Source: Candidatus Levyibacteriota bacterium (GTDB taxonomy: Bacteria > Patescibacteriota > Microgenomatia > Levybacterales > UBA12049). Taken from it: a stretch of DNA of 64,000 bases. Under the pieces are notes generated by a model, which saw nothing but the letters and a program-made list of their open reading frames with translations, did no database searches and was not told the origin of the DNA. Below are positions 4,787-63,665 of this stretch, one piece after another. Within the stretch, counting starts at the first letter, position 1. Each line of letters starts with the position of its first letter. Location of the stretch: NCBI GenBank assembly GCA_016182425.1, contig JACPGP010000016.1, positions 9,353 to 73,352 of the forward strand, read 5' to 3'. The position numbers were made by a program, and so were the translations under genes.

Positions 4787-5401
4787 ATGCCTGATATCTT
4801 TACCGAAAAAACCGAAACGATTACTCCTCCTATTAGCAAGCCTACTCATACTCACCACCTTGCTTCTTTCTGTGATCATCCAGAAGGCATCACATTTGAA
4901 AACCAAGAACCCGATGAGGAAATTTTACTTTTCTTACGGAGGCATTTTATCACCAATATTCCATGGATTTTTTTGGCACTTATACTTGCTCTTCTTCCAC
5001 CTCTTCTCTCTCTTATTGCTCCAACAATCCCAACATTTCTCTTTACTTCTCTCCCCACCACCTTCCTTCATATTTTTCTTATTTTCTACTACCTTGTTAT
5101 CTTCACTTTTGTGCTGGTGGAATTTATTACCTGGTATTTTAATATTTCAATTATCACCCAGAAGCGAATTATCGATATTGACTTTTCTGATCTGATCTAC
5201 CACGATGTGGCAGTAACCAAACTTAATCTTGTCGAAGACACCAACTATACCCAGACTGGATTTATCCGCTCTCTTTTTAACTATGGAGACGTCTTTGTCC
5301 AAACAGCAGGAGAAAAGCTCCATTTCGATTTCTTAGCTGTACCAAGACCAACGACAGTTGTTAACATTATTCAGAATTTGATTGGTAAAAATCATGCCTG
5401 A
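4787..5401 (+). CDS. Membrane protein with a membrane-flanked PH-like (YdbS/YdbT-type) domain
   Basis: Two TM helices are followed by ...ITQKRIIDIDFSDLIYHDVAVTKLNLVEDT...GDVFVQTAGEKLHFDFLAVPRP. Assignment is by resemblance only. Confidence 0.45.
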   Translation: MPDIFTEKTETITPPISKPTHTHHLASFCDHPEGITFENQEPDEEILLFLRRHFITNIPWIFLALILALLPPLLSLIAPTIPTFLFTSLPTTFLHIFLIFYYLVIFTFVLVEFITWYFNISIITQKRIIDIDFSDLIYHDVAVTKLNLVEDTNYTQTGFIRSLFNYGDVFVQTAGEKLHFDFLAVPRPTTVVNIIQNLIGKNHA

Positions 5402-15441: not shown

Positions 15442-17136
15442 ATGAAACTGCCCGCCCTACCCAAGCGTCTAGCGTCTAGCGTTGCGCGTCTAGTTTTTAT
15501 ATTTATTGCATTTTTCATTTTTACAACTCCTGCTTTTGCTCAAACAAGTCCTGCCTTAACCACCAACACTAACCCCGATGTGCCCAAAAATCTCCATACC
15601 TGGACTCAGAATGTCATGATCGAAGTAATGGCTGCCATGTCCTGCCAACTAACCGGTATTGATCCAATAAATCCAAAACAATCATGCCTTGGCGTTGACT
15701 CACAAACTGGCAAAATTGGTTATGTTCCTTCGGCAAATCAGGGACAAGCAGGCGGCGCTATTGGGGTGATGGGAAATCTTATTGCTATGACCTATACGCC
15801 TGCCATGCATACAGGTGATTATTTTGGCTACCTGGCTCAAAACTTTGGTGTTGTCAAGTCGGCCTATGCCCAAACAACAGGGGCAGGGTTTGACAGTCTT
15901 AACCCTATTATTAATCTCTGGATTGCATTTAGAAACCTTGTCTATCTTCTTTTTGTGGCCGTGTTTGCCATAGTAGGATTTGGCATTATGCTTCGCATTA
16001 ATATTGATCCAAGAACTGTGATGACCATTGCCAACCAACTGCCAAAAATGATCATTGCAATATTACTTGTGACTTTCTCCTTTGCCATTTCCGGCTTTCT
16101 TATTGACCTAATGTGGGCATCTATTTATGTGACAACAAATGTTATCGTTTCATCAGATCCAAACCAAGAACTCATATCTCAAGAAACTGCCCAAAAAATC
16201 GTGCAATCAGCAAATCCGATTGAAGCTGCAAATATTGCGGGGGAAGGGAAAGATAAAAAAATTGGAGGTTTAGCAAGGATTGCCTCTGAACCATCCGAAT
16301 CCTTAGGCGAGGTAGTTACTCCTCTTTTTGACAGTGGTATTGGGAAAAGCTCGCTTGGTGTAGCCACAAGCATTATATTTTTTAGCCTGGCGCAAAAAGC
16401 AGCCTCGCCTTTTCAGGAAGCAATCAAAGCGATAGGAAGCTGGACAGGCCTCCCGGGAAAAGCTATTACTCTCACAATATCTACTGCAATTGGCCTCCTT
16501 GCGGGAGTAGCGGGTGGCGCTAATGCTGGGTCTCTTGGGCCATTCTTTGTCAGCTGGATTGTATTTATCGTTATTGTTATCGCAATCCTCTGGGCACTGT
16601 TTCGACTTACTTTTCAGCTCGTTATTGCTTACGTTACTGTGCTTATTCACACTGTATTCTCGCCATTTTGGATTATTGGCGGGCTTTTCCCGGGAAGCCC
16701 CATTGGCTTTGGCGCCTGGTTTCGGGAAATGCTGGGCGCTCTGTCTGTCTTTCCAGTCACCATTGGCATGTTTCTTTTAGGAAGAATATTTATGGCTGCG
16801 TTTGACCAAAATGCACAAACTCACTTTGCTCCGCCCATGACCGGCAATCCCAATGCAGGTAATTTTGGCGCATTTATTGGACTTGGCATTATTCTTTTGA
16901 CACCGCAGGTTGTAACCATCATGAAGGATCTTTTTAAGTCCCCCCAGTTTAAGTACGGCGGCGCTATTGCCCAACCATTAGCCTTTGGGCTTGGTGCGGT
17001 CAACGCACCACAGATAGCACAGAAACTTGGTATGTGGGGATACTACTCTGGCCAGATGAGACATATACCAATAGTCGGTTCGTTTTTTGGCCGAGAGGAA
17101 ACAGCAAGAGGAAGACCACCTCAACCAGGAGGATAG
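15442..17136 (+). CDS. Polytopic membrane protein with signal peptide; possible VirB6/TrbL-like T4SS channel subunit
   Basis: The leader ends ...TPAFAQT and roughly 8-10 hydrophobic helices follow. Assignment rests on topology and neighbourhood only. TATACT (15429-15434) lies 7 nt before the ATG. Confidence 0.4.
   Translation: MKLPALPKRLASSVARLVFIFIAFFIFTTPAFAQTSPALTTNTNPDVPKNLHTWTQNVMIEVMAAMSCQLTGIDPINPKQSCLGVDSQTGKIGYVPSANQGQAGGAIGVMGNLIAMTYTPAMHTGDYFGYLAQNFGVVKSAYAQTTGAGFDSLNPIINLWIAFRNLVYLLFVAVFAIVGFGIMLRINIDPRTVMTIANQLPKMIIAILLVTFSFAISGFLIDLMWASIYVTTNVIVSSDPNQELISQETAQKIVQSANPIEAANIAGEGKDKKIGGLARIASEPSESLGEVVTPLFDSGIGKSSLGVATSIIFFSLAQKAASPFQEAIKAIGSWTGLPGKAITLTISTAIGLLAGVAGGANAGSLGPFFVSWIVFIVIVIAILWALFRLTFQLVIAYVTVLIHTVFSPFWIIGGLFPGSPIGFGAWFREMLGALSVFPVTIGMFLLGRIFMAAFDQNAQTHFAPPMTGNPNAGNFGAFIGLGIILLTPQVVTIMKDLFKSPQFKYGGAIAQPLAFGLGAVNAPQIAQKLGMWGYYSGQMRHIPIVGSFFGREETARGRPPQPGG
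15464..15491 (+). repeat. Heptanucleotide x4 array (AGCGTCT AGCGTCT AGCGTTG CGCGTCT) inside a CDS
   Basis: Read directly. It is 28 nt long and encodes KRLASSVARLV in the signal-peptide n-region. Confidence 0.8.
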
Positions 17137-17149
17137 CAATAGTTAATAA

Positions 17150-20100
17150 TTACGCTGCTTTCTTCAATTGTTCTAACTGCTCGTTAAGCATCATATAAAT
17201 AAATGCGGCGATAAGCATAGGAATCAACGATCTACTCATCGCCAATCCAAGGTGGTACCATTCAGCGCCCAATCGTTTCTTTAACTTTTCGTATTGGTGT
17301 TCATTCACAATTCCTGCCGCGTGCACTTCATGCAGAAATGCCTGTATATCCAGCTCGTCCCAGGCCATTTGCCCTCTTCCAAAGGCAACCTGGGCGTATG
17401 AAGCATCTCCAGAAACAAAACCATGAAACTTTCCTATGCCAAGCGGTAGTCTTCCCACCCAATCTTTTTTGTAAAACTTCGCCACGCCTTCTGCTAGATA
17501 CCGCATTGCTTCGCTAGCCACATCTTTGTCGTGTCCGGAGAGTGTGCTATGCATCTCCTTCATTGCCTTAACAATATCGCCCTGGCTTTTATACTCGGTT
17601 AAATTTTGAATAAACTTACCATACAGCCCGGCAGTGGCAACAACAGGCCCAATATCCGCATCCCAACGTCTCTTTATGGTATCGCCGGTAATAGCAGCAT
17701 AATCAAATGCCTCGTGCGGCATATCATCTGTGCCAAAGATAAAGGGTACTTTCCACCCTTTATGCTCAAGGTTATGCATTAACTTATCCATATGTTTTTC
17801 CTTAAACTCACCACGAATATGTTCTGCTAGTGCCTTAACTCGTTCCTCTTGTTCTTGTTGATGGCGATATTCTTCTGTGCCAACAGCTGCGGTCTTTAAT
17901 AAAGCAAAATCTTGGTTTTCAAGTCCTGTGGGAAAATGCAAATTCTCAATTTGCTCTGGAGGCTTTGGTTGTGGTCTGTCTTTTTCCTTTACTTCTCCCC
18001 GCGCAAGACGTTCGTTAAATTCGCGCAGACGTTCGTTAAAATTACGAAGTTCATCACTATCTAGATATTTTTTGTATGCATCAATGCGTCTTCGCAACAA
18101 GCGTTCCTGCACCAGAGCCAAGGCAGCTAAATCATGTTGTAATTCTTTACTTGTAATAATAATTTGTCCGGGAGAATCAGCTTCTTCTTTAATTTGATCT
18201 TTATAATGTTTTCTAAGCACGCCTTGGCGTAAACTGATAAGGTTGTTAAAAAATTTAAGCGGCGTTGTTTTTTCGGCTACTCCAATGGCACTACGAATAA
18301 CTTGTTCAGCTTGTTGCGCCTTGTTCTTATCATCACCAACTAATTCTCCTCTTTTTGCTTCAATCAAAAGCCCAACACCTATCAAAGGATTATTCTCATC
18401 ATATTGCAATAATCGGGCAGTGGCGCTGGCCAGGGTAACCTTATCACCTTTCCATCGCCAACCGGTCTGGGTAAAGATTGAGCCAATATGAAACGGGTTT
18501 TTCATCTGACCAAGCACATCATCTCCCCTATCGTTTACCAAAATATCAAGAATTTCCGATGAAGACATGGCCTTAAACCGTTTTAGCTCCTCTGTCGACC
18601 AAGGACCCCTGTTTCCCTCCAATTTATATCCAAGTATGGCATTTTGCCGTCCTCCCACGTCAAAACGCACTATCTGCTCGAAAAAGGCGATATTTTTTAC
18701 CAAGCCGTTGGCCCACCAGCTGTTTAAGGGGACATTTTTGGTGATGCCGTGCATGGCGGCAATTTCAAAAAACCGCGCCGTGACAATACCCATGCCCCGG
18801 GCAAGCGATATGGCCCGCTTTATCTCCCACTCATCCATGTCTTTTGGCAACACCCCCATGGCTTTTGCCTTTGTGGCCATATCCAACACCAGTTGCTCAA
18901 CCTCACCATATGTCCCATCCGGATTATTAACCATTGCTCTGGCCGGAAGATAACCGCCGTTTTTTGCCACCACCTCCAGCATGGCCTGCTCGTAAAGGCG
19001 CAGCATTGACGCAGTACCCCTTTTGCTAAACGCAATGTGGGCTTCCTCTCCGGCAAAGCGGCTGGCTGCTTTAATAATATCCTCTGCGCCAAAATTCCTG
19101 TTGACATAGTAGGTGATGGTATGAAGGTATTCTCTAAGCGTTTGCTCCCTATTTAACATTCTTTCTATCCGCCGCACCTTTTCCTGCTGATCTGGAGTTA
19201 ATAAATTACCTGACGGCAAAATCTTGTTTTCCGCCGCACGTGCCAACACATTATGGAAATCTCTAATCTCCATATCTCCTCCCGGGCCAATGGCTTCCCG
19301 CCATTCGTGGTCCGAATCCACATCTGCATATTTGAAAAGCCTGCTAAATTCTTTCTCCACTTCTTGCCATTTTCTCCATCCTTCAGTCCCCTCTGCTGCA
19401 TCGGGATCCGCGGCTAAAACGTTATCTATAAGCTGTTTTTGCTGATCTCTTCCCATGCGAATTTCACCGTACAGACCGGGGTGGAGAATTGATGAATCCG
19501 TATCCATCTGCGAACGAAGGGCTTCTTTTAACCATTGTGCTTTTGACAAGAGTTTCTGGGCTTGAGCTGCCTGTTCGTCTGCACCGCCCGCAATGCGAGA
19601 CAATTCATCAATGTACTCATTTAGACGACTACTATTTACCTCTGTCTCTGTTCTTAGATCTGTGTTTGGACTGGTTAATTCTCTGCTTAGCCGGTCTGCA
19701 ATATCACGGACTCCTCCTGTATATGTATTTTGCTCAAGATCAAAATCAGCAAGCGTTTGAGACTTAAAGTATGTCAGCTCCTGCGGCAGCTCATTTCTGC
19801 CCATTCTTTGATCTGCTTCTCTTCTCCTTCTATCACCCCCTTCTCTTCTTTCCTGCTCTGCTTGCCGCGCCGTTTCTTCTTCTCTTATCTGTCTTCTTAC
19901 CACTACCAACCGCTCGGTTACTCTTTCCAAAAGCTGTTCTTGCTGGGCTTGATCAACACCGGTCAGAGAACTTACGCTTCTTCGAAGCTCCTCTAAAATT
20001 TGTAATTGTTCTTGGAAATTGCCATCCGGAATATCCTCCAGCAATCTATTCGCAGTTCGCTCTTGCAGCCGCAGTTGAAAATCGGTAATACCTGTCTCTG

Positions 20101-38540: not shown

Positions 38541-39803
38541 CTGCAAAATTTTATTTTTTACTCTATTGTTCTTTTTTTACCTACGCAACTTGGTCGTCAC
38601 TTCTGGCCGTCTTGGGCGTATATTTCTGGACTTAGAGTTGATTATCTTTCTCCCACTCTTTATCTTACAGATATTTTAATTGGAATTTTGTTCGTTTTGT
38701 GGTTATTGAAAAATCTTTCTTTTGTAAAGTTGCTATTTTCAAATTTCCCGCCTGCCAAGGCCCGGCACTGGCGGGCAGGCAAATTTAAAATTTTATTTTT
38801 CATTCTCATTGTTATATTTGGTATTATTTTCTCAAAAAGCCCAATGGCAGGACTATATGGTTTATTGAAATTATTGGAGTTTAGTTTTTTTGGATTTTAT
38901 ACATCGAGAGCAATTAGGAATCAAAAAGACGTAAAAGCGCTTATAATCATGCTGTCATTAGGGGTCTTGTTTGAGTCTTTATTGGCTGCTTTGCAATTTC
39001 TTAAACAGAGTTCGCTAGGGGGTGTGTTTTATTTTTTTGGCGAGAGAACTTTTACGTCTCAAACTCCTGGTATTGCTAATGCATCAATAGAAGGAAAACT
39101 TATATTGCGTCCCTATGGTACTTTTTCTCACCCGAATGTTTTGGCGGGATATTTAATCATTGCTCTGGCGATGGTAATATCAAACATCAAATATCAAAAA
39201 GCAAATATAATGAAAATATTTTTTTTAAGCTCAATAGCAATAGGTTCAATCGCACTCCTTTTAACTATGAGTAGAACAGCTATTATTTTGTGGATAGCAA
39301 TTTTATTTTATCTATTAAAACCCTTAACGCTTAATACAAAATACTTAATACTTTTTCTGGTATGTATTGGTAGCATTTTTTTTTCTCCTTTTGGCTCTCG
39401 TTTTTTTAATGCTGCTCAAACTGATGAATCTTTTATTCGCAGAAAAGAATTAACCATTACCGCTTTAGAAATGATAAAATCCAGCCCGATTATTGGTGTG
39501 GGACTTATGAATTTTCTTCCAAATCTACCATTGTTTCAAGAAACATCTGCAAGTTCGCTGTTTACGCAATTGCAGCCCGTACACAACATTTTTCTTTTGG
39601 TATTTGCGGAAACTGGTATAATTGGATTATCTTTTTTTCTGTGGTTTCTTAAGAAAACCTTCAAAAGATTTACGATTTTTTCTATTGTTTTAATTCTCGG
39701 TTTTTTTGATCATTATTTTTTAACTCTGCAACAGGGACAGTTGCTTTTTTCGTTTGTTTTTGGATATTGTTGGACGAGAAGTTTTGAGTTACACTCCATT
39801 TAA
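38541..39803 (+). CDS. O-antigen ligase/polymerase (Wzy_C-like) family membrane protein; start unresolved
   Basis: The protein is multi-TM with LLLTMSRTAIILWIAILF and PVHNIFLLVFAETGIIG. The frame is open from 38538 and encodes ...PTQLGRHFWPSWAYISGLRVDYLSPTLYLTDIL upstream of the track start at 38688. No ATG, GTG or TTG lies in that stretch. Confidence 0.7.
   Translation: MQNFIFYSIVLFLPTQLGRHFWPSWAYISGLRVDYLSPTLYLTDILIGILFVLWLLKNLSFVKLLFSNFPPAKARHWRAGKFKILFFILIVIFGIIFSKSPMAGLYGLLKLLEFSFFGFYTSRAIRNQKDVKALIIMLSLGVLFESLLAALQFLKQSSLGGVFYFFGERTFTSQTPGIANASIEGKLILRPYGTFSHPNVLAGYLIIALAMVISNIKYQKANIMKIFFLSSIAIGSIALLLTMSRTAIILWIAILFYLLKPLTLNTKYLILFLVCIGSIFFSPFGSRFFNAAQTDESFIRRKELTITALEMIKSSPIIGVGLMNFLPNLPLFQETSASSLFTQLQPVHNIFLLVFAETGIIGLSFFLWFLKKTFKRFTIFSIVLILGFFDHYFLTLQQGQLLFSFVFGYCWTRSFELHSI
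38747..38780. repeat. GC-rich 34-nt palindromic mini-element inside a CDS
   Basis: CCCGCCTGCCAAGGCCCGGCACTGGCGGGCAGGC is flanked on both sides by AAATTT. Its termini CCCGCCTGC and CGGGCAGGCA recur at 62880-62922. Confidence 0.75.
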
Positions 39804-55230: not shown

Positions 55231-56538
55231 ATGGAAAATTTGGTTGTCGAGGCAACCTATCCGATTACCTTTCGCCAAGATGATGCGCAAACGCTTGGAA
55301 AATACCTCCAAGGCCATCACTCGGTAGTTCTTATTGGCATGAAGCGGGTAGGAATCAGCAATTTTTTGAGATTTTTCCTTAATCACAAGGACATTATTCC
55401 AACCTACATTAGTAGAACCGATAAACACCTTTTTATTCCCGTTGACTTAAGCGATCTGGTGGAGCGGGAAATTTTTCCATTCTGGATATTAACCCTAAAG
55501 CGAATCTCCGATACTGTAGCGCAATCTTCTCTTGTTGACAGGAAAGTAAAAAAAGAAATTGAAGGGCTTTTTCTCAGCAGCATTCAGTCGAAAGATCTTT
55601 TTTTGGTTATTGATAATGTCAGAAGAAGCTTGCGTGTTATTATTCAGAGCGGTGTCTACCCAACGCTTTTTTTTCTGCGGTTTGATAGGATAAAAGAAGT
55701 AGTAACTGCTGAATTTTTCGATAATCTGCAGGGGTTAAAAGACGCCACGCATCAGAAGATGTCGTATGTGTTCACAAGCTACAGAGGGCTTGATAAACTC
55801 GCTCCATCAGTTTTTACCAAATCGTCTCTTTCCATGTTTTCGCACGATATGTACATAAAACCCGTAAGACAAGAGGATGTGCGGGTTGTTTGCAAGTCGT
55901 ATCAAAAAATGTATCGGCAACATCTCCCGTTAGATGTGCGCAGTTGGTTACACGAAATTGTCGATGGATACATTCAGTATTTGCAGCTGGGGCTTATTTT
56001 GTTGCGCACAAAGCACATTGCAATAAAAAGCAAGGAAGATCTTTTTAGTTTTGTTATGAATGATGAGCAAATCAATCTGCAGTCAGAGGAGTTATGGGAG
56101 AGTTTTGATCCGGCAGAACAGGGACTTCTTATAAAAGTTGTCCAAGGTGCAAGAATAAGCAGTGAAGACAAAACAGCGGCTAAATACCTTTGGGATACTG
56201 GTGTCTTGACGGAAAAAGCAGAGAAGCAGATATTCTTTAGCCCCCTATTTTTGTATTATGTAAAGCAAAAAATAGATAAGAAGGTGGATCAAAACGGCAT
56301 TGAGTTCACAAAAAAAGAACACCTCCTTTTTCAGGTGCTCAAAGAGCAGCAAAACCAGGTGTGCGAGCGGGAGATTATTATTGAACGTGTTTGGAAAGAA
56401 GCAGAAAGCTTTGGTGTTTCTGATTGGGCAATAGATCGTTTGGTAGCTAGAGTTAGAGGAAAATTAAAAAGACAGGGAAGTGAGTACGAAATTCAAACAA
56501 TTAAAACCAGAGGATATAAACTCGTAAGTAGTAAGTAG
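55231..56538 (+). CDS. Paralogue of 20839..22023: degenerate NTPase domain + OmpR/PhoB-type wHTH
   Basis: The C-terminus reads EREIIIERVWKE...IDRLVARVRGKLKR...IKTRGYKL. The Walker A position reads GMKRVGIS, so the conserved Lys is absent. The promoter is TTGCTA-17-TACAAT (55190-55218). Confidence 0.7.
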   Translation: MENLVVEATYPITFRQDDAQTLGKYLQGHHSVVLIGMKRVGISNFLRFFLNHKDIIPTYISRTDKHLFIPVDLSDLVEREIFPFWILTLKRISDTVAQSSLVDRKVKKEIEGLFLSSIQSKDLFLVIDNVRRSLRVIIQSGVYPTLFFLRFDRIKEVVTAEFFDNLQGLKDATHQKMSYVFTSYRGLDKLAPSVFTKSSLSMFSHDMYIKPVRQEDVRVVCKSYQKMYRQHLPLDVRSWLHEIVDGYIQYLQLGLILLRTKHIAIKSKEDLFSFVMNDEQINLQSEELWESFDPAEQGLLIKVVQGARISSEDKTAAKYLWDTGVLTEKAEKQIFFSPLFLYYVKQKIDKKVDQNGIEFTKKEHLLFQVLKEQQNQVCEREIIIERVWKEAESFGVSDWAIDRLVARVRGKLKRQGSEYEIQTIKTRGYKLVSSK

Positions 56539-56547
56539 TAAGGGATT

Positions 56548-57036
56548 TTATTCATTGAAATCAATTTCTTCAATTTTCCCGTCTTTTATTACTAATAATA
56601 CTCCTGTTTTTGGGTAATCATATAATTGAAATAAGGTAAATTTGTTTCTTAAAACCAGGTTTTTTATTGCAGCAATAACAGCGCCGTGGGTGCAGATAAG
56701 AACACTTTGGTAATTTGATTTCTCAATATATTGCAGAAAATCTTTTACCCGATCACGTAAATCATTAAATGATTCTTCGTTGTATTCATTCAGCCGTTTG
56801 TCAAAAGTAAATTTCTTTCCGGTTTTTTTGGTTACAATGGCTGCAGTTTGGCGGCATCTAACAAACTCTGAACATACATTGAATTGGGATGGTATCTTTT
56901 TTAGATAATTTGCCATTTTTTCTATTGGCGGTTTGCCTTCAGCAAGAAGCTCTGCGGTGACAATTTTGTCTCCGTACCCAAACAAGCTTTTTGTTGCCAG
57001 GCCGTGGCGGAATATATAAAAAGTTTTGTTGCTCAT
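56548..57036 (-). CDS. Histidine phosphatase (phosphoglycerate mutase-like) family protein
   Basis: FYIFRHGLAT carries the RHG motif and ...LICTHGAVI the second His. Confidence 0.85.
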   Translation of the reverse strand: MSNKTFYIFRHGLATKSLFGYGDKIVTAELLAEGKPPIEKMANYLKKIPSQFNVCSEFVRCRQTAAIVTKKTGKKFTFDKRLNEYNEESFNDLRDRVKDFLQYIEKSNYQSVLICTHGAVIAAIKNLVLRNKFTLFQLYDYPKTGVLLVIKDGKIEEIDFNE

Positions 57037-58368: not shown

Positions 58369-60462
58369 ATGGATAAAGTGTACAACCATAAAGAAATTGA
58401 GGAGAAAATTTATAAAGAGTGGGAAGAGAAGAGATATTTTAAACCAGAAATAAATCCAAACGGAAAACCCTACACAATTATTTTGCCCCCCCCAAACGCC
58501 AACGGCGCATTGCATTTTGGCCATGCCATGTTTACGGTTGAGGATATTTTAATTCGCTACCACCGAATGAAGGGTGATGCTGCGTTGTGGCTTCCGGGAA
58601 CAGATCATGCGGGAATTGAAACACAGTTTGTCTTTGAGAGAAAATTAAAGCTCGAGGGGAAATCTAGATTAGACTATGACCAAGAAACATTTTATAAAAT
58701 GATTTGGGGATATGTCGAAGAGCACAGGGGAGGAATACAAAATCAACTTCGAAAACTTGGGTTTTCTTTAGACTGGAGCCGGGAAAAATATACCCTTGAT
58801 CCGGCAGTTATTAAATTAGTTTACAAAACATTTAAAAGAATGTTTGATGAAGGAATTGCTTATCGAGACTACAGACTTGTAAATTACTGCACAAGAGATG
58901 GTACCAGCTTTTCGGATTTAGAAGTTAAGCAAGTTGAACAAAAAGACCCGCTTTATTACCTGAAATACGGTCCGTTTGTCTTGGCAACTGTCCGTCCTGA
59001 AACAAAATTTGGCGACACAGCAGTGGCTGTTAATCCAAATGACAAAAGATATCAAAAATGGATTGGAAGGGAAATAGAAGTAGAAGGACTACTTGGAAAG
59101 TTTAAGCTAAAAGTAATTGCCGATGATGTGATAGATCCAAATTTTGGAACAGGTGTTGCTAAAGTAACTCCATCTATTGACATGAAAGATTTTGAAATAG
59201 GGAAGCGGCATAATTTGCCACTTAAACTTATTGTTGGTTTTGATGGAAAACTAACAGATATCGCAGGGCCGTATGCTGGTTTGTATGTTAAAGAAGCTAG
59301 GAAAAAAGTTGTCCAAGATTTGCAAAAGAAAGGTCTTATTGAAAAAATTGATGACAATTATATACATACTATTGCTACTTGCTACAAATGCGGTATGACA
59401 CTTGAGCCATTACCCAAAGAGCAATGGTTTGTGAAGGTAAAGCCACTTGCGCAGCGGGCAATAGAGGTGGTTAAAAAAGGAGAAATTAAAATTACGCCAA
59501 GAAATTTTGAAAACACATATTTTCAATGGCTTGAAAATCTGCGCGACTGGAATATTTCTCGTCAGATTGTTTGGGGGATTCGTATTCCTGCATGGAGAAA
59601 CAAAAAAACAGGAGAGTGGGTAGTAACAGAAGGTGATATACCAAGTGGTAATGAATGGGAGCAAGATACAGATACATTTGACACCTGGTTTTCATCAGGA
59701 CAATGGCCATATATAACGCTTCTAACAACGAAACCAGGTGATTTTGAAAAGTTTTACCCAACATCGGTTATGGAAACTGGCTACGATATTCTCAAAGCAT
59801 GGGTAAGCAGAATGATGATGATGGGAATTTATGCTACCGGAAAAGTTCCATTCAGAGATATCGTATTGCATGGATTGGTGAATGATCCATATGGCAAAAA
59901 AATGAGCAAAAGCAAGGGAAATGTGGTAAATCCTCTAGAACTTGTGGAGCAGTACGGCGCAGATGCAGTGCGTTTTGCCTTAATGTATGGGAATGCCACA
60001 GGAAATGATCAGAGTTTGTCATATCCAAAACTTGACGCAGCACGCAAGTTTACTAATAAACTATGGAACATAGGTCGTTTCATTAATATGAAACGGATTT
60101 ACGATTTACGATTTACGATTTACGATTCAAGAGACGAGTTACTAAAACATGCGATACATGAGAAGGACAGAGAGATGGTTAAACGGGTAGAAAAACTTGC
60201 AAAAGAAATAACTAAAGATATTGATAATTATAACTTTAATTTCGCCGCGGAAAAGTTGTATGATTTTATCTGGCATATGTTTGCAGATAAGTATATAGAA
60301 GATGTCAAAACTCGCATTGATGAAAATTCTTGCTTAGTACTTACTACTTTATACTTAATACTGTTAAAATTACTGCATCCTTTTATGCCGTTTGTGACAG
60401 AAGAGATATATAAACGTCTTGGTGGGCAAGAATCAATTATGATATCAAAATGGCCAAAGTAA
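58369..60462 (+). CDS. valS: Valine--tRNA ligase, short form (697 aa)
   Basis: PPPNANGALHFGHAM (HIGH), KMSKSKGN (KMSKS) and ETGYDILKAWVSRM. Confidence 0.85.
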   Translation: MDKVYNHKEIEEKIYKEWEEKRYFKPEINPNGKPYTIILPPPNANGALHFGHAMFTVEDILIRYHRMKGDAALWLPGTDHAGIETQFVFERKLKLEGKSRLDYDQETFYKMIWGYVEEHRGGIQNQLRKLGFSLDWSREKYTLDPAVIKLVYKTFKRMFDEGIAYRDYRLVNYCTRDGTSFSDLEVKQVEQKDPLYYLKYGPFVLATVRPETKFGDTAVAVNPNDKRYQKWIGREIEVEGLLGKFKLKVIADDVIDPNFGTGVAKVTPSIDMKDFEIGKRHNLPLKLIVGFDGKLTDIAGPYAGLYVKEARKKVVQDLQKKGLIEKIDDNYIHTIATCYKCGMTLEPLPKEQWFVKVKPLAQRAIEVVKKGEIKITPRNFENTYFQWLENLRDWNISRQIVWGIRIPAWRNKKTGEWVVTEGDIPSGNEWEQDTDTFDTWFSSGQWPYITLLTTKPGDFEKFYPTSVMETGYDILKAWVSRMMMMGIYATGKVPFRDIVLHGLVNDPYGKKMSKSKGNVVNPLELVEQYGADAVRFALMYGNATGNDQSLSYPKLDAARKFTNKLWNIGRFINMKRIYDLRFTIYDSRDELLKHAIHEKDREMVKRVEKLAKEITKDIDNYNFNFAAEKLYDFIWHMFADKYIEDVKTRIDENSCLVLTTLYLILLKLLHPFMPFVTEEIYKRLGGQESIMISKWPK
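60097..60127 (+). repeat. Heptanucleotide array (ATTTACG)x4 + ATT inside valS
   Basis: Read directly. It encodes IYDLRFTIYDS. Confidence 0.9.
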
Positions 60463-60800
60463 AATTACATTTACCGAGCATTTTCCGATCTTTTTCCGAC
60501 AAACTATTTGGGATATTAGTTTTTTTGCTCTTAATTGCAGTAATTGCATCTGGTATCCGAGTCTACGATCATTTTCAGAAGCGTCAATTTGTGCTGGGAG
60601 AACGACTTGCTATTTTAGAAAAAATAACCTTCTGGGAAGAAGTTGCAAAAAAATATAAAGGATACAGAGATGGATATTTCCAGCTGGCAGTTTTAGAGTA
60701 TCAATTAGGAGAGAAAGAAAAGGCAAAAATGTATCTTGAGAAAGTCTTTGAGCTTGATCCGAATTTTGAAGAAGGAAGGAGCTTGGAAAAACTACTCTGA
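60450..60800 (+). CDS. Small N-terminally anchored TPR-like protein
   Basis: A TM helix LFGILVFLLLIAVIASGI is followed by GYFQLAVLEYQLGEKEKAKMYLEKVFELDPNF. It overlaps the valS end by 13 nt. Confidence 0.5.
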   Translation: MAKVKLHLPSIFRSFSDKLFGILVFLLLIAVIASGIRVYDHFQKRQFVLGERLAILEKITFWEEVAKKYKGYRDGYFQLAVLEYQLGEKEKAKMYLEKVFELDPNFEEGRSLEKLL

Positions 60801-61520
60801 CTTTTCCTCAGGCTTCTTATTCTCTTTCTGTGCTTCTGCGGGTTTTTCTCCTTCTGTCTTTGCTTCTCCTTCGGCTGGAGCCTCACCTTCCGCAGGAGCA
60901 GCTTCGGCTTTTGCTGCTTCTTTGGCTGCAGCTTCAGCTGCTGCCTCTTTCTCAGCCTCTTTGGTGACAAGTTCGGCTATTTTTACAACAATCTGCGCGG
61001 GCTCTGTTAAAACAGTAACGCCGCTTCCAACTTTTAGATCGCCAATAGTTATTTGATCGCCAACATTTGTCAAATGTTCGATGTTAACCTCGATTTTTTC
61101 TGGTAGATCTGCTGGAAGCGCCTCTACTTCAACTTCATTGAGAGTTTGCATAAGAAGTCCAAGCTTGTCTGTAATGGCTTTTGGTTCACCAATAGTGGTA
61201 ACAGGCACAAACGTTTTTACTTTTTCTTTTAGGTTTACTTGGTAAAAATCTGCATGAAGAGGAATTTTTGTGATGTAGTCTTTTTGGACATTATGAATAA
61301 GAACAGGGCGTGTCTCTCCACCTACTTCAAGATCAATAAGACCGGTTTCCCCAGCTTCTTTATACGTTGCTTCAAAATCTTTAAATGGAGCTTGAACAGC
61401 AAGAGACTTAATGCCTTTTCCGTAAATATTAGCAGGGAAAATACCGTTTTTGCGCAGTTTCTTAACTTTTTTTCCAAGTGCATCTCGTTTTTCAGCTTTT
61501 AATGTTGGTTTTTTCGCCAT
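60792..61520 (-). CDS. rplY: 50S ribosomal protein L25/Ctc with an Ala/Glu/Lys-rich tail
   Basis: LKAEKRDALGKKVKKLRKNGIFPANIYGKG...VLIHNVQKD...PLHADFYQV. Confidence 0.9.
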   Translation of the reverse strand: MAKKPTLKAEKRDALGKKVKKLRKNGIFPANIYGKGIKSLAVQAPFKDFEATYKEAGETGLIDLEVGGETRPVLIHNVQKDYITKIPLHADFYQVNLKEKVKTFVPVTTIGEPKAITDKLGLLMQTLNEVEVEALPADLPEKIEVNIEHLTNVGDQITIGDLKVGSGVTVLTEPAQIVVKIAELVTKEAEKEAAAEAAAKEAAKAEAAPAEGEAPAEGEAKTEGEKPAEAQKENKKPEEKSE

Positions 61521-61564: not shown

Positions 61565-62062
61565 ATGGTTGTTTTAGGAATTGATCCGGGGATTGGAAGA
61601 ATGGGGTGGGGAGCTATAATAGTGCAAAGTTCAAAGTGCAAAGTTCAAAGCTGCGGATGCATTGAAACGGCGGCGAAGTTAAGGACCGAAGAACGGTTGC
61701 TGCAAATTTATCAAGACCTCACAAAGATTATAAAAGAATATCAGCCGGATGTATTGGCAATTGAGGAGCTTTTTTTTGGCGCAAATGCCAAGACAGCCTT
61801 AGTTGTTGGTCAGGCGCGAGGAGTTGCGCTTTTGGTTGCAGGACAAAATAAATTACCTATTGCAGTCTACACACCGCTTCAAGTAAAAGTTGCCTTAACT
61901 GGGTATGGAAGAGCAGAAAAAAATCAAATTGGGCAGATGGTCAAAGTATTACTCAAGCTTTCATCAATCCCAAAACCAGATGATACAGCAGATGCCCTAG
62001 CTGTTGCCCTCACCCACGCATTTTCGAGAAAATACGGCGTTTTGACAAGCAAGAAAAGATAG
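61565..62062 (+). CDS. ruvC: Holliday junction resolvase RuvC
   Basis: VLGIDPGIGRMGWG...LAIEELFF...GQARG...PDDTADALAVALTH. Confidence 0.9.
   Translation: MVVLGIDPGIGRMGWGAIIVQSSKCKVQSCGCIETAAKLRTEERLLQIYQDLTKIIKEYQPDVLAIEELFFGANAKTALVVGQARGVALLVAGQNKLPIAVYTPLQVKVALTGYGRAEKNQIGQMVKVLLKLSSIPKPDDTADALAVALTHAFSRKYGVLTSKKR
61622..61649 (+). repeat. Heptanucleotide array (GTGCAAA GTTCAAA)x2 inside ruvC
   Basis: Read directly. It is 28 nt long and encodes VQSSKCKVQS in the first beta-hairpin. Confidence 0.9.
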
Positions 62063-62079
62063 ACTACAATGCACTTGTT

Positions 62080-62301
62080 ATGAAAAAGATACAACAAACG
62101 TTACAAAGCAGTATCGAACAAGAAACCCTCTTTAGAAATTGGGAAAAATATAGAGGGAGCATTGTTATGGTGGTGGGCAACGAAGTTTTTTCGACAAAAC
62201 GAGCAAAAAATGTTGATAAAATGCTTATGGAGATAGAAGACAAATACCATAAACAACCACTCATTACCTATATTCCAAAAGAAGGAACCCTTATTCTTTA
62301 G
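62080..62301 (+). CDS. Small DUF5678-like protein
   Basis: WEKYRGSIVMVVGNEVFSTKRAKNVDKMLMEIEDKYHKQPLITYIPKEGTLIL resembles DUF5678 as I recall it. The call is low certainty. Confidence 0.45.
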   Translation: MKKIQQTLQSSIEQETLFRNWEKYRGSIVMVVGNEVFSTKRAKNVDKMLMEIEDKYHKQPLITYIPKEGTLIL

Positions 62302-62304
62302 TAT

Positions 62305-62715
62305 ATGGCTATATCCTTTCCATTTAAGGAGGAGCACTCGCCGATATTTGGCAAAATTCGTCGCCCAGTAGCAGAAGTTTACTTTAAGCATACAAATATT
62401 GCTATTTGGCGAAAAGCAACAATGATCGTTGATACAGGAGCAGATTACACGCTTTTACCGCATTTCTTCGCTTCGACATTAGGTATTGCTGTTACAAAAG
62501 ATTGCCGAGTTATTGATACACAAGGAGTGGGAGGAAAAAGCAGGGTGTATCTTGTAAAAGAAAAAATGCATGTAAAAATTGGGGAGTTTGAGCGGAAAAT
62601 TCCGTTGGGATTTCTCGCTAACGATTACATTCCGCCTCTTTTAGGAAGACAGGAATTCTTTGAGACATTTCGAGTGGTGTTTGAAAAATTCTCTCCCACC
62701 TTTGAGGAGACATAG
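62305..62715 (+). CDS. Retropepsin-like (clan AA) aspartic protease
   Basis: ATMIVDTGADYTLLP carries the D-T-G-A active-site motif, and ...PPLLGRQEFFETFRVVFE is present. Confidence 0.75.
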   Translation: MAISFPFKEEHSPIFGKIRRPVAEVYFKHTNIAIWRKATMIVDTGADYTLLPHFFASTLGIAVTKDCRVIDTQGVGGKSRVYLVKEKMHVKIGEFERKIPLGFLANDYIPPLLGRQEFFETFRVVFEKFSPTFEET

Positions 62716-62755
62716 CCCATGCACTTTCCTAGAAGCTCAAAAATACCCCATAATA

Positions 62756-62784
62756 TTGACTTATACTTCATTTTCTGTTAGGAT
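62756..62784 (+). promoter_or_regulatory. Orphan promoter in the ruvC-ruvA insertion
   Basis: TTGACT (62756-62761), a 17-nt spacer, TAGGAT (62779-62784). This is the same hexamer pair as the promoter at 12659. A TTG lies 6 nt downstream, at 62791. Confidence 0.45.
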
Positions 62785-62878
62785 AGGATATTGCAGATAG
62801 ATAAATCCAGGCGTATTTTGCTGCCTGTTTACCCTGAGCATTGTCGAAGGGTTTTTTGTCTTTTTGTATTTTATTTTT

Positions 62879-62922
62879 GCCCGCCTGCAGCGCTTTATTG
62901 CGCAGCAATTAACGGGCAGGCA
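62879..62922. repeat. Second copy of the GC-rich palindromic mini-element
   Basis: GCCCGCCTGCAGCGCTTTATTGCGCAGCAATTAACGGGCAGGCA shares its termini with 38747-38781 but has a different interior. Confidence 0.7.
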
Positions 62923-63017
62923 CGTTGATAAGTTGCGGAAAGTTTAAGTGGATGCTACTTTGGATATCTTAAGAAAGGTATGTAGAGTGGTGTCCACTTA
63001 GCGAAAAGGAGGTCATA

Positions 63018-63197
63018 GTGTCTACCCCTGATCTGATAGCCATTGAAAAGGTTCTTGCAGAGAGCCTTAGAGGAGGAGGTGGTTCAGTTGCTGTACAGGC
63101 AATAGCTATCCTGCTCAAAGCGCTCGATGAGCTGGCAAGACAAGCACAGCTGATCAAGGAAGAACTGCAATCGGCAAAAGCGGCTGCTTCACAATAA
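63018..63197 (+). CDS. Small helical protein (59 aa) of the GC-rich island
   Basis: My own translation; the ORF is below the track cutoff. It starts at GTG 63018, 5 nt after AAGGAGG (63006-63012). It reads VSTPDLIAIEKVLAESLRGGGGSVAVQAIAILLKALDELARQAQLIKEELQSAKAAASQ. Confidence 0.55.
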   Translation: MSTPDLIAIEKVLAESLRGGGGSVAVQAIAILLKALDELARQAQLIKEELQSAKAAASQ

Positions 63198-63260
63198 GTA
63201 GAATATTCGCCATGTGTCGTGGCAAGATCCAGCACGTGCTGATATAAACAGGAGTAAATC

Positions 63261-63665
63261 ATGGTTAGCATTCCTCCCTACGAGGTAGAATTCAAGAAGA
63301 TTGATCCGCTCCTGCTCGAGGTAGAAGTACGAATGTTTTTGCCAATCGTGCTACATCTATCGATCATGCCTGGACACCCTATCGGCCTAATGGTAGGCGA
63401 GCTCACGGGTAAAGTGGGGCCAGGAGTTGGCTTCACTAACGGAACCAACAGTGCCCTCAAAGTGAGTATCACCTATGTCAATGGTGACGAGCCGATGGAT
63501 ATTGATCTCTCGCCAAACAGGCTTGAGGTGGTAGGATTTGATCTGCAAGGTGTCGGGCCATTCACGGCGACCTTCTCCGTGGTAAGGAAAAGGCGTGGTC
63601 GTCCTCTGCCGACAATCATTGTACATGTTCGTCCTCCCTTTTTCGGTCCCCCGCGGAACAACTAA
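63261..63665 (+). CDS. Hypothetical 134-aa protein of the GC-rich island
   Basis: ATG is preceded by AGGAG (63250-63254) with a 6-nt spacer. One line counted about 60% GC. No motif recognised. Confidence 0.6.
   Translation: MVSIPPYEVEFKKIDPLLLEVEVRMFLPIVLHLSIMPGHPIGLMVGELTGKVGPGVGFTNGTNSALKVSITYVNGDEPMDIDLSPNRLEVVGFDLQGVGPFTATFSVVRKRRGRPLPTIIVHVRPPFFGPPRNN

Follow-up and report, generated by a model that had tools for sequence, protein, structure and literature searches.

Simple sequence repeats (SSRs) with long units are well documented in bacteria, and heptanucleotide repeats are the most abundant class among those with 5-11-nt units (Mrazek et al., 2007, as relayed in PMC4679880 and PMC4692102). 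According to PMC4679880, long SSRs are found mostly in non-pathogens and opportunistic pathogens whose genomes are large, and a unit length divisible by three makes a repeat the likeliest to be coding. Prokaryotic SSRs are generally avoided inside genes, most strongly the most mutable types (PMC3315296), and those tandem repeats that are retained in ORFs usually have a unit divisible by three (PMC9879509). The present work concerns a 64,000-nt stretch of a Candidatus Levyibacteriota bacterium (GenBank assembly GCA_016182425.1, contig JACPGP010000016.1, positions 9,353 to 73,352; hereafter the window), in which valS, the gene for valine-tRNA ligase (ValRS), carries a perfect array of the heptanucleotide GATTTAC. 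The over-representation of bacterial heptanucleotide SSRs is already known, as is a four-unit preference in the G-rich repeats of Xanthomonas. Reported here are coding heptanucleotide microsatellites that are conserved in position, quantised in copy number and evolving in concert in core genes of the candidate phyla radiation (CPR).

Each of the described systems shares some of these properties. Long SSRs are likewise built of 7-nt units repeated head to tail; period 7 stands out from its neighbours, and polymerase slippage is the presumed origin (Mrazek et al., 2007, as relayed in the citing papers). The arrays reported here, however, occupy orthologous positions in housekeeping open reading frames (ORFs) of CPR bacteria with tiny genomes, and they are quantised at four units and evolve concertedly. 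The contingency loci of Haemophilus and Neisseria, including the 7-bp hmw promoter repeats (PMC8262952), resemble them in a unit that is not a multiple of three and in a possible hint of length heterogeneity; here, however, the hosts are core enzymes instead of surface or virulence genes, the arrays have about four units and there is no N-terminal bias. The GGGAATC/GGGGAYT repeats of Xanthomonas and Nostoc (PMC4692102) and the cyanobacterial short tandemly repeated repetitive (STRR) heptamers are similar in unit length and in a reported preference for four units, whereas CPR arrays lack G-tracts, are for the most part coding and differ in unit many times over within a genome. The TAACTGA repeats of Beggiatoaceae, Cyanobacteria and Bacteroidetes (PMC4679880) are likewise direct heptamer repeats, with 2-6 copies per set, but they represent one conserved unit located directly upstream of start codons, for which translational regulation was proposed, in contrast to the variable intragenic units seen here. 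Finally, the tandem repeats of Borgs (PMC9879509) are also fast-evolving, perfect and A-rich, encode loop or disordered peptides in ORFs and are under strong selection for frame. All Borg ORF repeat units are divisible by three, while in CPR genes the frame is kept by copy number (4 or 7). Literature searches turned up no account of such arrays in genes of CPR bacteria, and heptamers are not mentioned by Lin and Kussell (2012).

The valS locus comprises the following features:

58369-60462, plus strand: valS, valine-tRNA ligase, 697 aa, the array host (PF00133, tRNA-synt_1; PF08264, Anticodon_1).
60096-60127, plus strand: perfect heptanucleotide array (GATTTAC)x4.6 in valS (sequence, Tandem Repeats Finder (TRF), perfect run).
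60333-60362, plus strand: another period-7 array within valS, imperfect and of the TACTTAA/CTTAATA family (TRF, 4.3 copies, 82%).

The first array reads GATTTAC GATTTAC GATTTAC GATTTAC GATT (TRF: period 7, 4.6 copies, 100% matches) and is the same one that the initial annotation of the sequence had written as ATTTACG four times followed by ATT. In the valS frame it encodes the peptide RIYDLRFTIYDS, residues R576-S587. The window ValRS has a 100% identical counterpart at NCBI, encoded by a Candidatus Levybacteria metagenome-assembled genome (MAG). In an AlphaFold2 (AF2) model, poor overall (predicted local distance difference test, pLDDT, 59) and used for its C-terminal domain only (pLDDT 72-92), residues 575-587 form a loop flanked by helices 552-574 and 588-594 in the anticodon-binding domain. 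This loop is about 10 residues longer than in Thermus thermophilus ValRS (1GAX), and the extra residues fall exactly at the array. Since the 7-nt unit lies within an ORF, gain or loss of one unit would shift the frame, as had been noted from the sequence, and truncate the protein. The second array is situated in the conserved helix ...LVLTTLYLILLKLLHPF (ValRS site ~658; AF2 helix 652-669), a site where 12 other valS genes also carry arrays; its unit contains TAA, and one unit must therefore deviate.

Two further arrays of the window had been grouped with that of valS:

61565-62062, plus strand: ruvC, Holliday junction resolvase, 165 aa, array host (PF02075).
61621-61650, plus strand: four-unit array AGTGCAA AGTTCAA AGTGCAA AGTTCAA AG in ruvC, perfect at period 14.
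15442-17136, plus strand: 564-aa multi-pass membrane protein (VirB6-like, from homologues), host of the array below.
15464-15493, plus strand: decayed four-unit array AGCGTCT AGCGTCT AGCGTTG CGCGTCT AG in the VirB6-like gene (TRF, 73% matches).

The proposal that all three share a single four-heptamer format is supported, and the arrays are far beyond chance. The ruvC array alternates two units, AGTGCAA and AGTTCAA (86% matched at period 7 by TRF), and the VirB6-like array is decayed. The ruvC array encodes VQSSKCKVQS, the beta-hairpin after GIDPGIGRMGWG. The peptide of the VirB6-like array, KRLASSVARL, is part of the signal-peptide n-region; orthologues have KRLASSVKRLV, QRLVFSVQRLVF, KIENCKLKI and similar peptides at this position. 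The VirB6-like protein itself has no Pfam match, while some of its homologues have PF04610 (TrbL/VirB6). In model bacteria valS is essential and ruvC is not, so that only one of the two host genes described as essential deserves the term.

Chance was assessed in the window by counting arrays of at least four units with a self-match of 18/21 or better, with 200 dinucleotide shuffles as control. Two arrays of the window qualified, against zero in each of the 200 shuffles, and there was no array of at least four units with period 6 or 8-15. Given the encoded peptides and the codon usage of the window, the probability of the synonymous codons is 6.5e-5 for valS, 1.0e-5 for ruvC and 2.1e-8 for the VirB6-like gene. 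The search was extended to a comparison set in which 80 loci with valS come from GTDB genomes and 80 with ruvC come from metagenomes; together with the window they amount to 2.0 Mb, nearly all from CPR (individual loci are cited below by L numbers). Arrays of at least four units are almost all of period 7: the first 1.42 Mb of CPR DNA contain 31 of them at this period, against 0-4 for any other period between 4 and 15. The lengths of perfect period-7 runs, taken over 2.02 Mb, have a bimodal distribution, with 51 of 17-21 nt, 8 of 24-27 nt and 29 of 28-36 nt, and none exceeds 36 nt. The 24-27-nt runs that were inspected, for example in L083, are four-unit arrays bearing one mismatch. Array density is highest in Levybacteria-like and Berkelbacteria loci, although the Levybacteria value of 9.2 per 100 kb is inflated because the loci are centred on ruvC and valS, and low in Saccharibacteria-labelled loci, a low-density internal control of 0.4 Mb with 0.75 arrays per 100 kb. 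The sole non-CPR control, 50 kb of phage T4, has zero arrays. The arrays thus consist of head-to-tail 7-nt units and are longer than expected by chance for their composition, as is characteristic of heptanucleotide SSRs. Generic tandem-repeat richness is ruled out by the absence of other periods, and chance or assembly artefact by the shuffles and by the recovery of arrays by independent assemblers and projects.

The position of the valS array is conserved, while its unit is not. In a DNA alignment, the arrays of the window, L177, L178, L082, L004 and L002 begin at one column, and each has four units plus a partial unit of 3-4 nt; no indel separates those of the window, L177 and L178. The units at this site, in the same order, are GATTTAC, AGTGATA, AGTTCAT, AACTCAA, AGTTCAA and AAATTCG. 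With the same column and format in its relatives, the window array is not a fresh insertion, and recent insertion into valS is ruled out by the alignment with the nearest relatives. Judging from the aligned sequences, an old array is present here in its local form, with all four copies of the unit exchanged for another. In 100 ValRS genes, the arrays are concentrated at residues ~414, 453-455, 581 (the window site) and 658-660. Loops tolerant of insertion make up sites 414 and 453, where other insertions gather too, whereas site 658 is in a conserved helix.

A comparable picture emerges for RuvC, where the array forms the beta-hairpin after GIDPGxGRxGWG (120 orthologous proteins; 72 unique DNA sequences). 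Hairpin length is constant, with 72 unique hairpins of one length, except for three loci (and P0223) with an 8-aa insertion, described below, and the window RuvC aligns without gaps with Escherichia coli RuvC (1HJR), so the array adds no length. Perfect four-unit ruvC arrays use six units, namely AAGTTCA, AAGTGCA, AAATTCG, AAAATCA, AAATCAC and AAGCTCG. The view that the unit sequences of different arrays are unrelated is thus correct within the window, but not across relatives, in which the valS and ruvC sites share unit families (AGTTCAA and derivatives). Whether the encoded residues are insertions also depends on the gene and the reference: there are none in ruvC, and the approximately 10 extra residues of valS are extra relative to T. 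thermophilus and not to the relatives.

Further hosts are TsaD, IleRS, RecG, RuvB and a pseudouridine synthase, all named from sequence motifs and not by family search. In TsaD (Kae1/Gcp-like, by motif only), four unrelated CPR lineages have four-unit arrays in the same two loops, which precede FP.LAL.VSGGHT and R.PRP, respectively (L041 9293-9327 and 9511-9543; L043 8995-9022; L053 8768-8802; L080 8149-8180 and 8460-8486), and their units (AAATACT, CTACCAC, AGACAGT, GAATCAT) are unrelated.

A separate observation concerns in-frame insertions, GC-rich and in part palindromic, which measure about 24 nt or more and occur inside or beside heptamer arrays in the same permissive loops. They were seen in the ruvC hairpin (L104 ~792-850, L146 ~5141-5200, L160 ~1752-1810), at valS site ~414 (L108, L112, L115, L121, L129), at the TsaD N-terminus of L080 and at the IleRS C-terminus of L018. 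Their peptides resemble STLRLRSGREL, CHPERSEGSRD and CHSELVSES, and their appearance suggests a small repeat element dispersed in several copies.

Units within one array have been made alike at the DNA level. Over 72 ruvC arrays, unit identity is 0.755 within a gene and 0.582 between same-position units of different genes, while the flanks show the reverse (0.33/0.22 within, 0.75/0.63 between); paralogous units are therefore more alike than orthologous ones, which is the signature of concerted evolution. Column patterns are mostly of the XXXX type, with one base in all four units (e.g. GGGG in 24 genes, AAAA in 13). Outside the array, L087 shares 87% identity with L116, yet the two have different perfect arrays, with 12 of 28 nt differing, whereas L087 and L108 are 84% identical outside and their arrays are identical. 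This contrast indicates that unit turnover is punctuated. Codon choice tracks the 7-nt register and not codon preference: Lys7 of RuvC is encoded by AAG in 35 of 61 cases against a background of 23.5%, and Phe8 by TTC in 11 of 11, while the neighbouring Phe13 uses TTC in 2 of 25. Codon usage thus rules out protein-level selection as the origin of the arrays.

The copy number of arrays within ORFs is tightly limited. TRF copy numbers of coding arrays peak at 4.0-5.0 (82 arrays), and the single larger case is an in-frame 7.6-unit array in the valS of L008; one apparent 6.0-unit ORF array is really located upstream of the pth start and hence non-coding. Non-coding arrays span 2 to 7.6 units, a contrast that rests on few such arrays (39), e.g. 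(ATACTTA)x7.6 upstream of ruvA in L124. The suggestion that the four copies are held by selection agrees with this difference, and copy number looks constrained. Frame also leaves a trace in the units themselves, as in 24 of 60 imperfect coding arrays the majority unit includes a stop triplet. Among those inspected individually (ATACTTA, AAGTTGA, AAGTTAA and AAACTGA arrays), the deviating unit is the one in which the stop would be in frame, as in ATACTTA ATACTTA ATACTTt ATACTTA. Perfect arrays of ABAB type (AAGTTGA/AAGTTCA, AAGTTAA/AAGTTCA, AAACTGA/AAACTCA) obey the same rule. The arrays of L097 and L140 reach 5.1-5.4 units by overwriting flanking bases, with length unchanged. A fixed ruler of ~32 nt was considered too, and is weakened by the non-coding arrays of 6-7.6 units (L024, L096, L114, L124) and by the 7.6-unit coding array of L008.

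Several non-coding and stop-containing arrays deserve mention in their own right. The L124 array (697-749) is intergenic and lies directly upstream of the ruvA start. A 115-nt AT-rich intergenic spacer in L003 (7790-7905) is made of GAAATTT/GAAAATT-like units. Right after the valS stop of L034 (6539-6621), two arrays of the AAAAGTC/AAAATTA type are inverted around a 15-nt spacer, and from their sequence they could form a hairpin of ~30 bp. The ATACTTA/TACTTAA unit family recurs across genes and genomes (window 60333-60362 and 39330-39353; L008 8751-8784), also at the valS C-termini of L106, L111, L114 and L121, and encodes hydrophobic helix segments (YLILNTLYLIL, LNTKYLIL). It holds TAA in both orientations and is therefore never perfect within an ORF.

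Taken together, we consider it probable, at roughly 60%, that these elements are heptanucleotide microsatellites homogenised by out-of-register copying, in which frame and protein length permit only four, rarely seven, units. The valS element would then be a coding microsatellite representing the local version of an old array present in this ValRS loop throughout Levybacteria. A DNA-level process with a 7-nt step would copy units onto their neighbours, so that a substitution either vanishes or spreads to all units, and the array may also overwrite flanking bases without a change in length. Purifying selection on the frame and on loop or hairpin length would remove copy numbers other than four (rarely seven, i.e., three units more), and one unit would be kept different where a stop would fall in frame, giving rise to ABAB arrays such as that of the window ruvC. 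The encoded peptide would merely be carried along, the loop, hairpin or signal-peptide n-region that holds it being permissive. We infer both the molecular mechanism of homogenisation and the reason for the 7-nt step; candidate mechanisms would be slipped-strand mispairing, out-of-register templated repair and intra-array conversion.

A number of points weigh against this explanation. The frame-neutral periods 6, 9 and 12 are almost absent while period 7 abounds, for which generic slippage offers no explanation. Single-unit intermediates would be lethal in an essential gene, so homogenisation must proceed without length change or by three-unit steps; in-frame passages from four to seven and back to four units, or length-neutral conversion, might avoid such intermediates, neither having been directly observed. 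The arrays stay perfect across lineages whose flanks differ by 13-35%, so that either the process must be very active or perfection itself must be selected for. Their presence at the same sites in distant CPR phyla (ValRS 453 and 581; two TsaD loops) could reflect great age, and perhaps function, or repeated birth. Moreover, most of the 39 non-coding arrays have 3-4.5 units, and the frame filter is therefore not the sole limit on length.

Assembly data from the strain of the window bear on whether the valS array varies in length. Logan contigs (k=31) break at the array in L162, L163, L164, L167 and L173: the right-hand contigs of four samples start at 60096, 60096, 60098 and 60099, and a left-hand contig ends at 60125, whereas one sample and the MAG itself read through the array with 4.6 units. 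These are the contigs inspected, 7 further Logan contigs being listed as similar. A 32-nt array contains no repeated 31-mer, and a graph branch at this point therefore implies reads with at least 33 periodic nt. The breaks could represent longer alleles (7.6 units in frame), rare slippage products or PCR (polymerase chain reaction) stutter present in at least two reads. An array of the same unit elsewhere was considered as the cause of the breaks, but (GATTTAC)3 was not found at any other place in 178 loci, although the whole community could not be searched. A contig produced by another assembler, L154, begins inside a ruvC array.

The contig breaks, together with the absence of (GATTTAC)3 from the other loci, are among the observations that would suit a contingency switch, in which reversible 7-nt slippage toggles ValRS, RuvC, TsaD and others, or in-frame loops of four and seven units, for the purposes of bet-hedging, dormancy or phage escape. 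A unit that is not a multiple of three, perfect and long-lived arrays and the in-frame 7.6-unit array of one valS also agree with such a switch. We regard it as unlikely, however, as there is no out-of-frame (OFF) allele among ~180 assembled orthologues (~100 valS, ~80 ruvC), four units constitute a short and relatively stable tract, and the breaks could come from rare slippage or PCR stutter. In an essential gene such as valS the OFF state would be lethal rather than a phase. Furthermore, the valS arrays are found in the last third of the gene, while frameshift switches are usually enriched towards the N-terminus (PMC3315296). Hosts such as ValRS, RuvC, TsaD, IleRS and RecG are not the dispensable, environment-facing genes of contingency loci; the valS arrays are at residues 414-660 of 697, and only the VirB6-like array is N-terminal. 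The broader proposition that CPR actively maintain four-heptad arrays at fixed core-gene sites (ValRS, IleRS, TsaD, RuvC, RuvB, RecG), either as hypermutable switches or through a dedicated 7-nt writing or homogenising machinery, is in our opinion similarly doubtful. If it were true, the age, perfection and cross-phylum position of the arrays would reflect function and not mutational drive plus tolerance, and the switch version would entail heterogeneity in growth or repair capacity.

Function at the nucleic-acid level appears less likely still. A protein-binding platform in coding sequence, of the kind formed by omega/ribbon-helix-helix (RHH) heptad operators, or a structure such as the G-quadruplex of the fourfold GGGAATC repeats of Xanthomonas, would account for a format fixed at ~30-34 nt and for positions conserved across phyla. 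The omega heptad consensus, repeated in promoter or centromere regions, is WATCACW, and the AATCACA unit of L007 and L140 fits it, in a manner that looks coincidental. A four-unit preference was likewise described for the intergenic heptamer repeats of Xanthomonas (PMC4692102). Nevertheless, units differ within the genome (GATTTAC, AGTGCAA, AGCGTCT, CTTAATA, AATATCA) and between orthologues, so there is no common recognition sequence, and non-coding arrays vary from 2 to 7.6 units. Omega/RHH operator arrays are rejected on these grounds, the arrays being, in addition, mostly intragenic, and G-quadruplex repeats, which have one G-tract of GGG or longer in each of four units, because GATTTAC, AGTGCAA, AGTTCAA and AGCGTCT contain no G-tract. 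Structured RNA is equally rejected: in folding energy, neither the three window arrays nor the antisense of that in valS improves on shuffles (z -0.12, +0.73, -0.09 and +0.22), and the arrays are unpaired in minimum free energy (MFE) structures. Borg-type amino acid tandem repeats (aaTR) do not apply either, since with a 7-nt unit the peptide period would be 7 aa, of which ~1.4 periods are present.

We also give little credence to insertion footprints, i.e., blocks newly deposited at permissive loops, independently of each other, by a mobile element, a repair polymerase or one-step stutter. The arrays at ValRS 453 are insertions relative to most orthologues, and L018 is longer by exactly 7 aa, equal to three units; the greater length of the valS loop relative to T. 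thermophilus and the GC-rich palindromic insertions gathered by the same loops point in the same direction. Against this, ruvC arrays are length-neutral, both in 72 genes and by comparison with E. coli RuvC, the start column and the four-unit format of the valS array are common to six lineages, and arrays spread into their flanks by overwriting. Neither terminal repeats nor target duplications nor associated genes were observed. The earlier idea of a process that deposits 28-nt blocks finds no support in the same ruvC data or in the orthology of the valS array to equally long arrays of other units. Protein-level selection for a repeated peptide, with DNA periodicity as a by-product, could draw on the hydrophilic, loop-like peptides and on the conserved helix encoded at site 658; yet codons follow the 7-nt register against preference, and substitutions in all units alter three different residues at once. 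This explanation, along with chance or artefact, is extremely improbable.

The remaining, weaker period-7 arrays of the window are the following:

39176-39208, plus strand: imperfect period-7/14 array (AATATCA) in a gene for a 371-aa membrane protein, peptide ISNIKYQKANI.
39330-39353, plus strand: period-7 array CTTAATA x3.4 in the same gene, peptide LTLNTKYLIL.
56524-56542, no strand assigned: intergenic array (GTAAGTA)x2.7, perfect, a short way downstream of the stop codon that ends minus-strand gene 56548-57036.

At 18000-18040, a repeat of ~21-22 nt (CGCGCAAGACGTTCGTTAAATT; x1.9 copies, 95% matches) in a 1202-aa minus-strand ORF is unrelated to the heptamer arrays. Between valS and ruvC, the minus strand (60792-61520) encodes a 242-aa protein with an Ala/Glu/Lys-rich low-complexity C-terminal tail, within which (~60950-61013) Logan contigs also break; its syntenic homologues in L177 and L178 match Pfam L25/TL5. 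Four small ORFs separate ruvC from ruvA (62080-63665), including a retropepsin-like aspartic protease (PF13650/PF13975 in L162), while in the relative L178 ruvA directly follows ruvC.

In practical terms, the arrays break short-k assemblies, as seen with the Logan contigs, and 7-aa periodic peptides can mislead the alignment and annotation of CPR proteins. More broadly, a whole lineage keeps frame-breaking 7-nt repeats in essential valS and in other core genes, among orthologues down to 63-82% protein identity. These arrays offer a natural system for studying homogenisation versus point mutation, the cause of a 7-nt slippage step, and how streamlined episymbionts tolerate or exploit hypermutable tracts.

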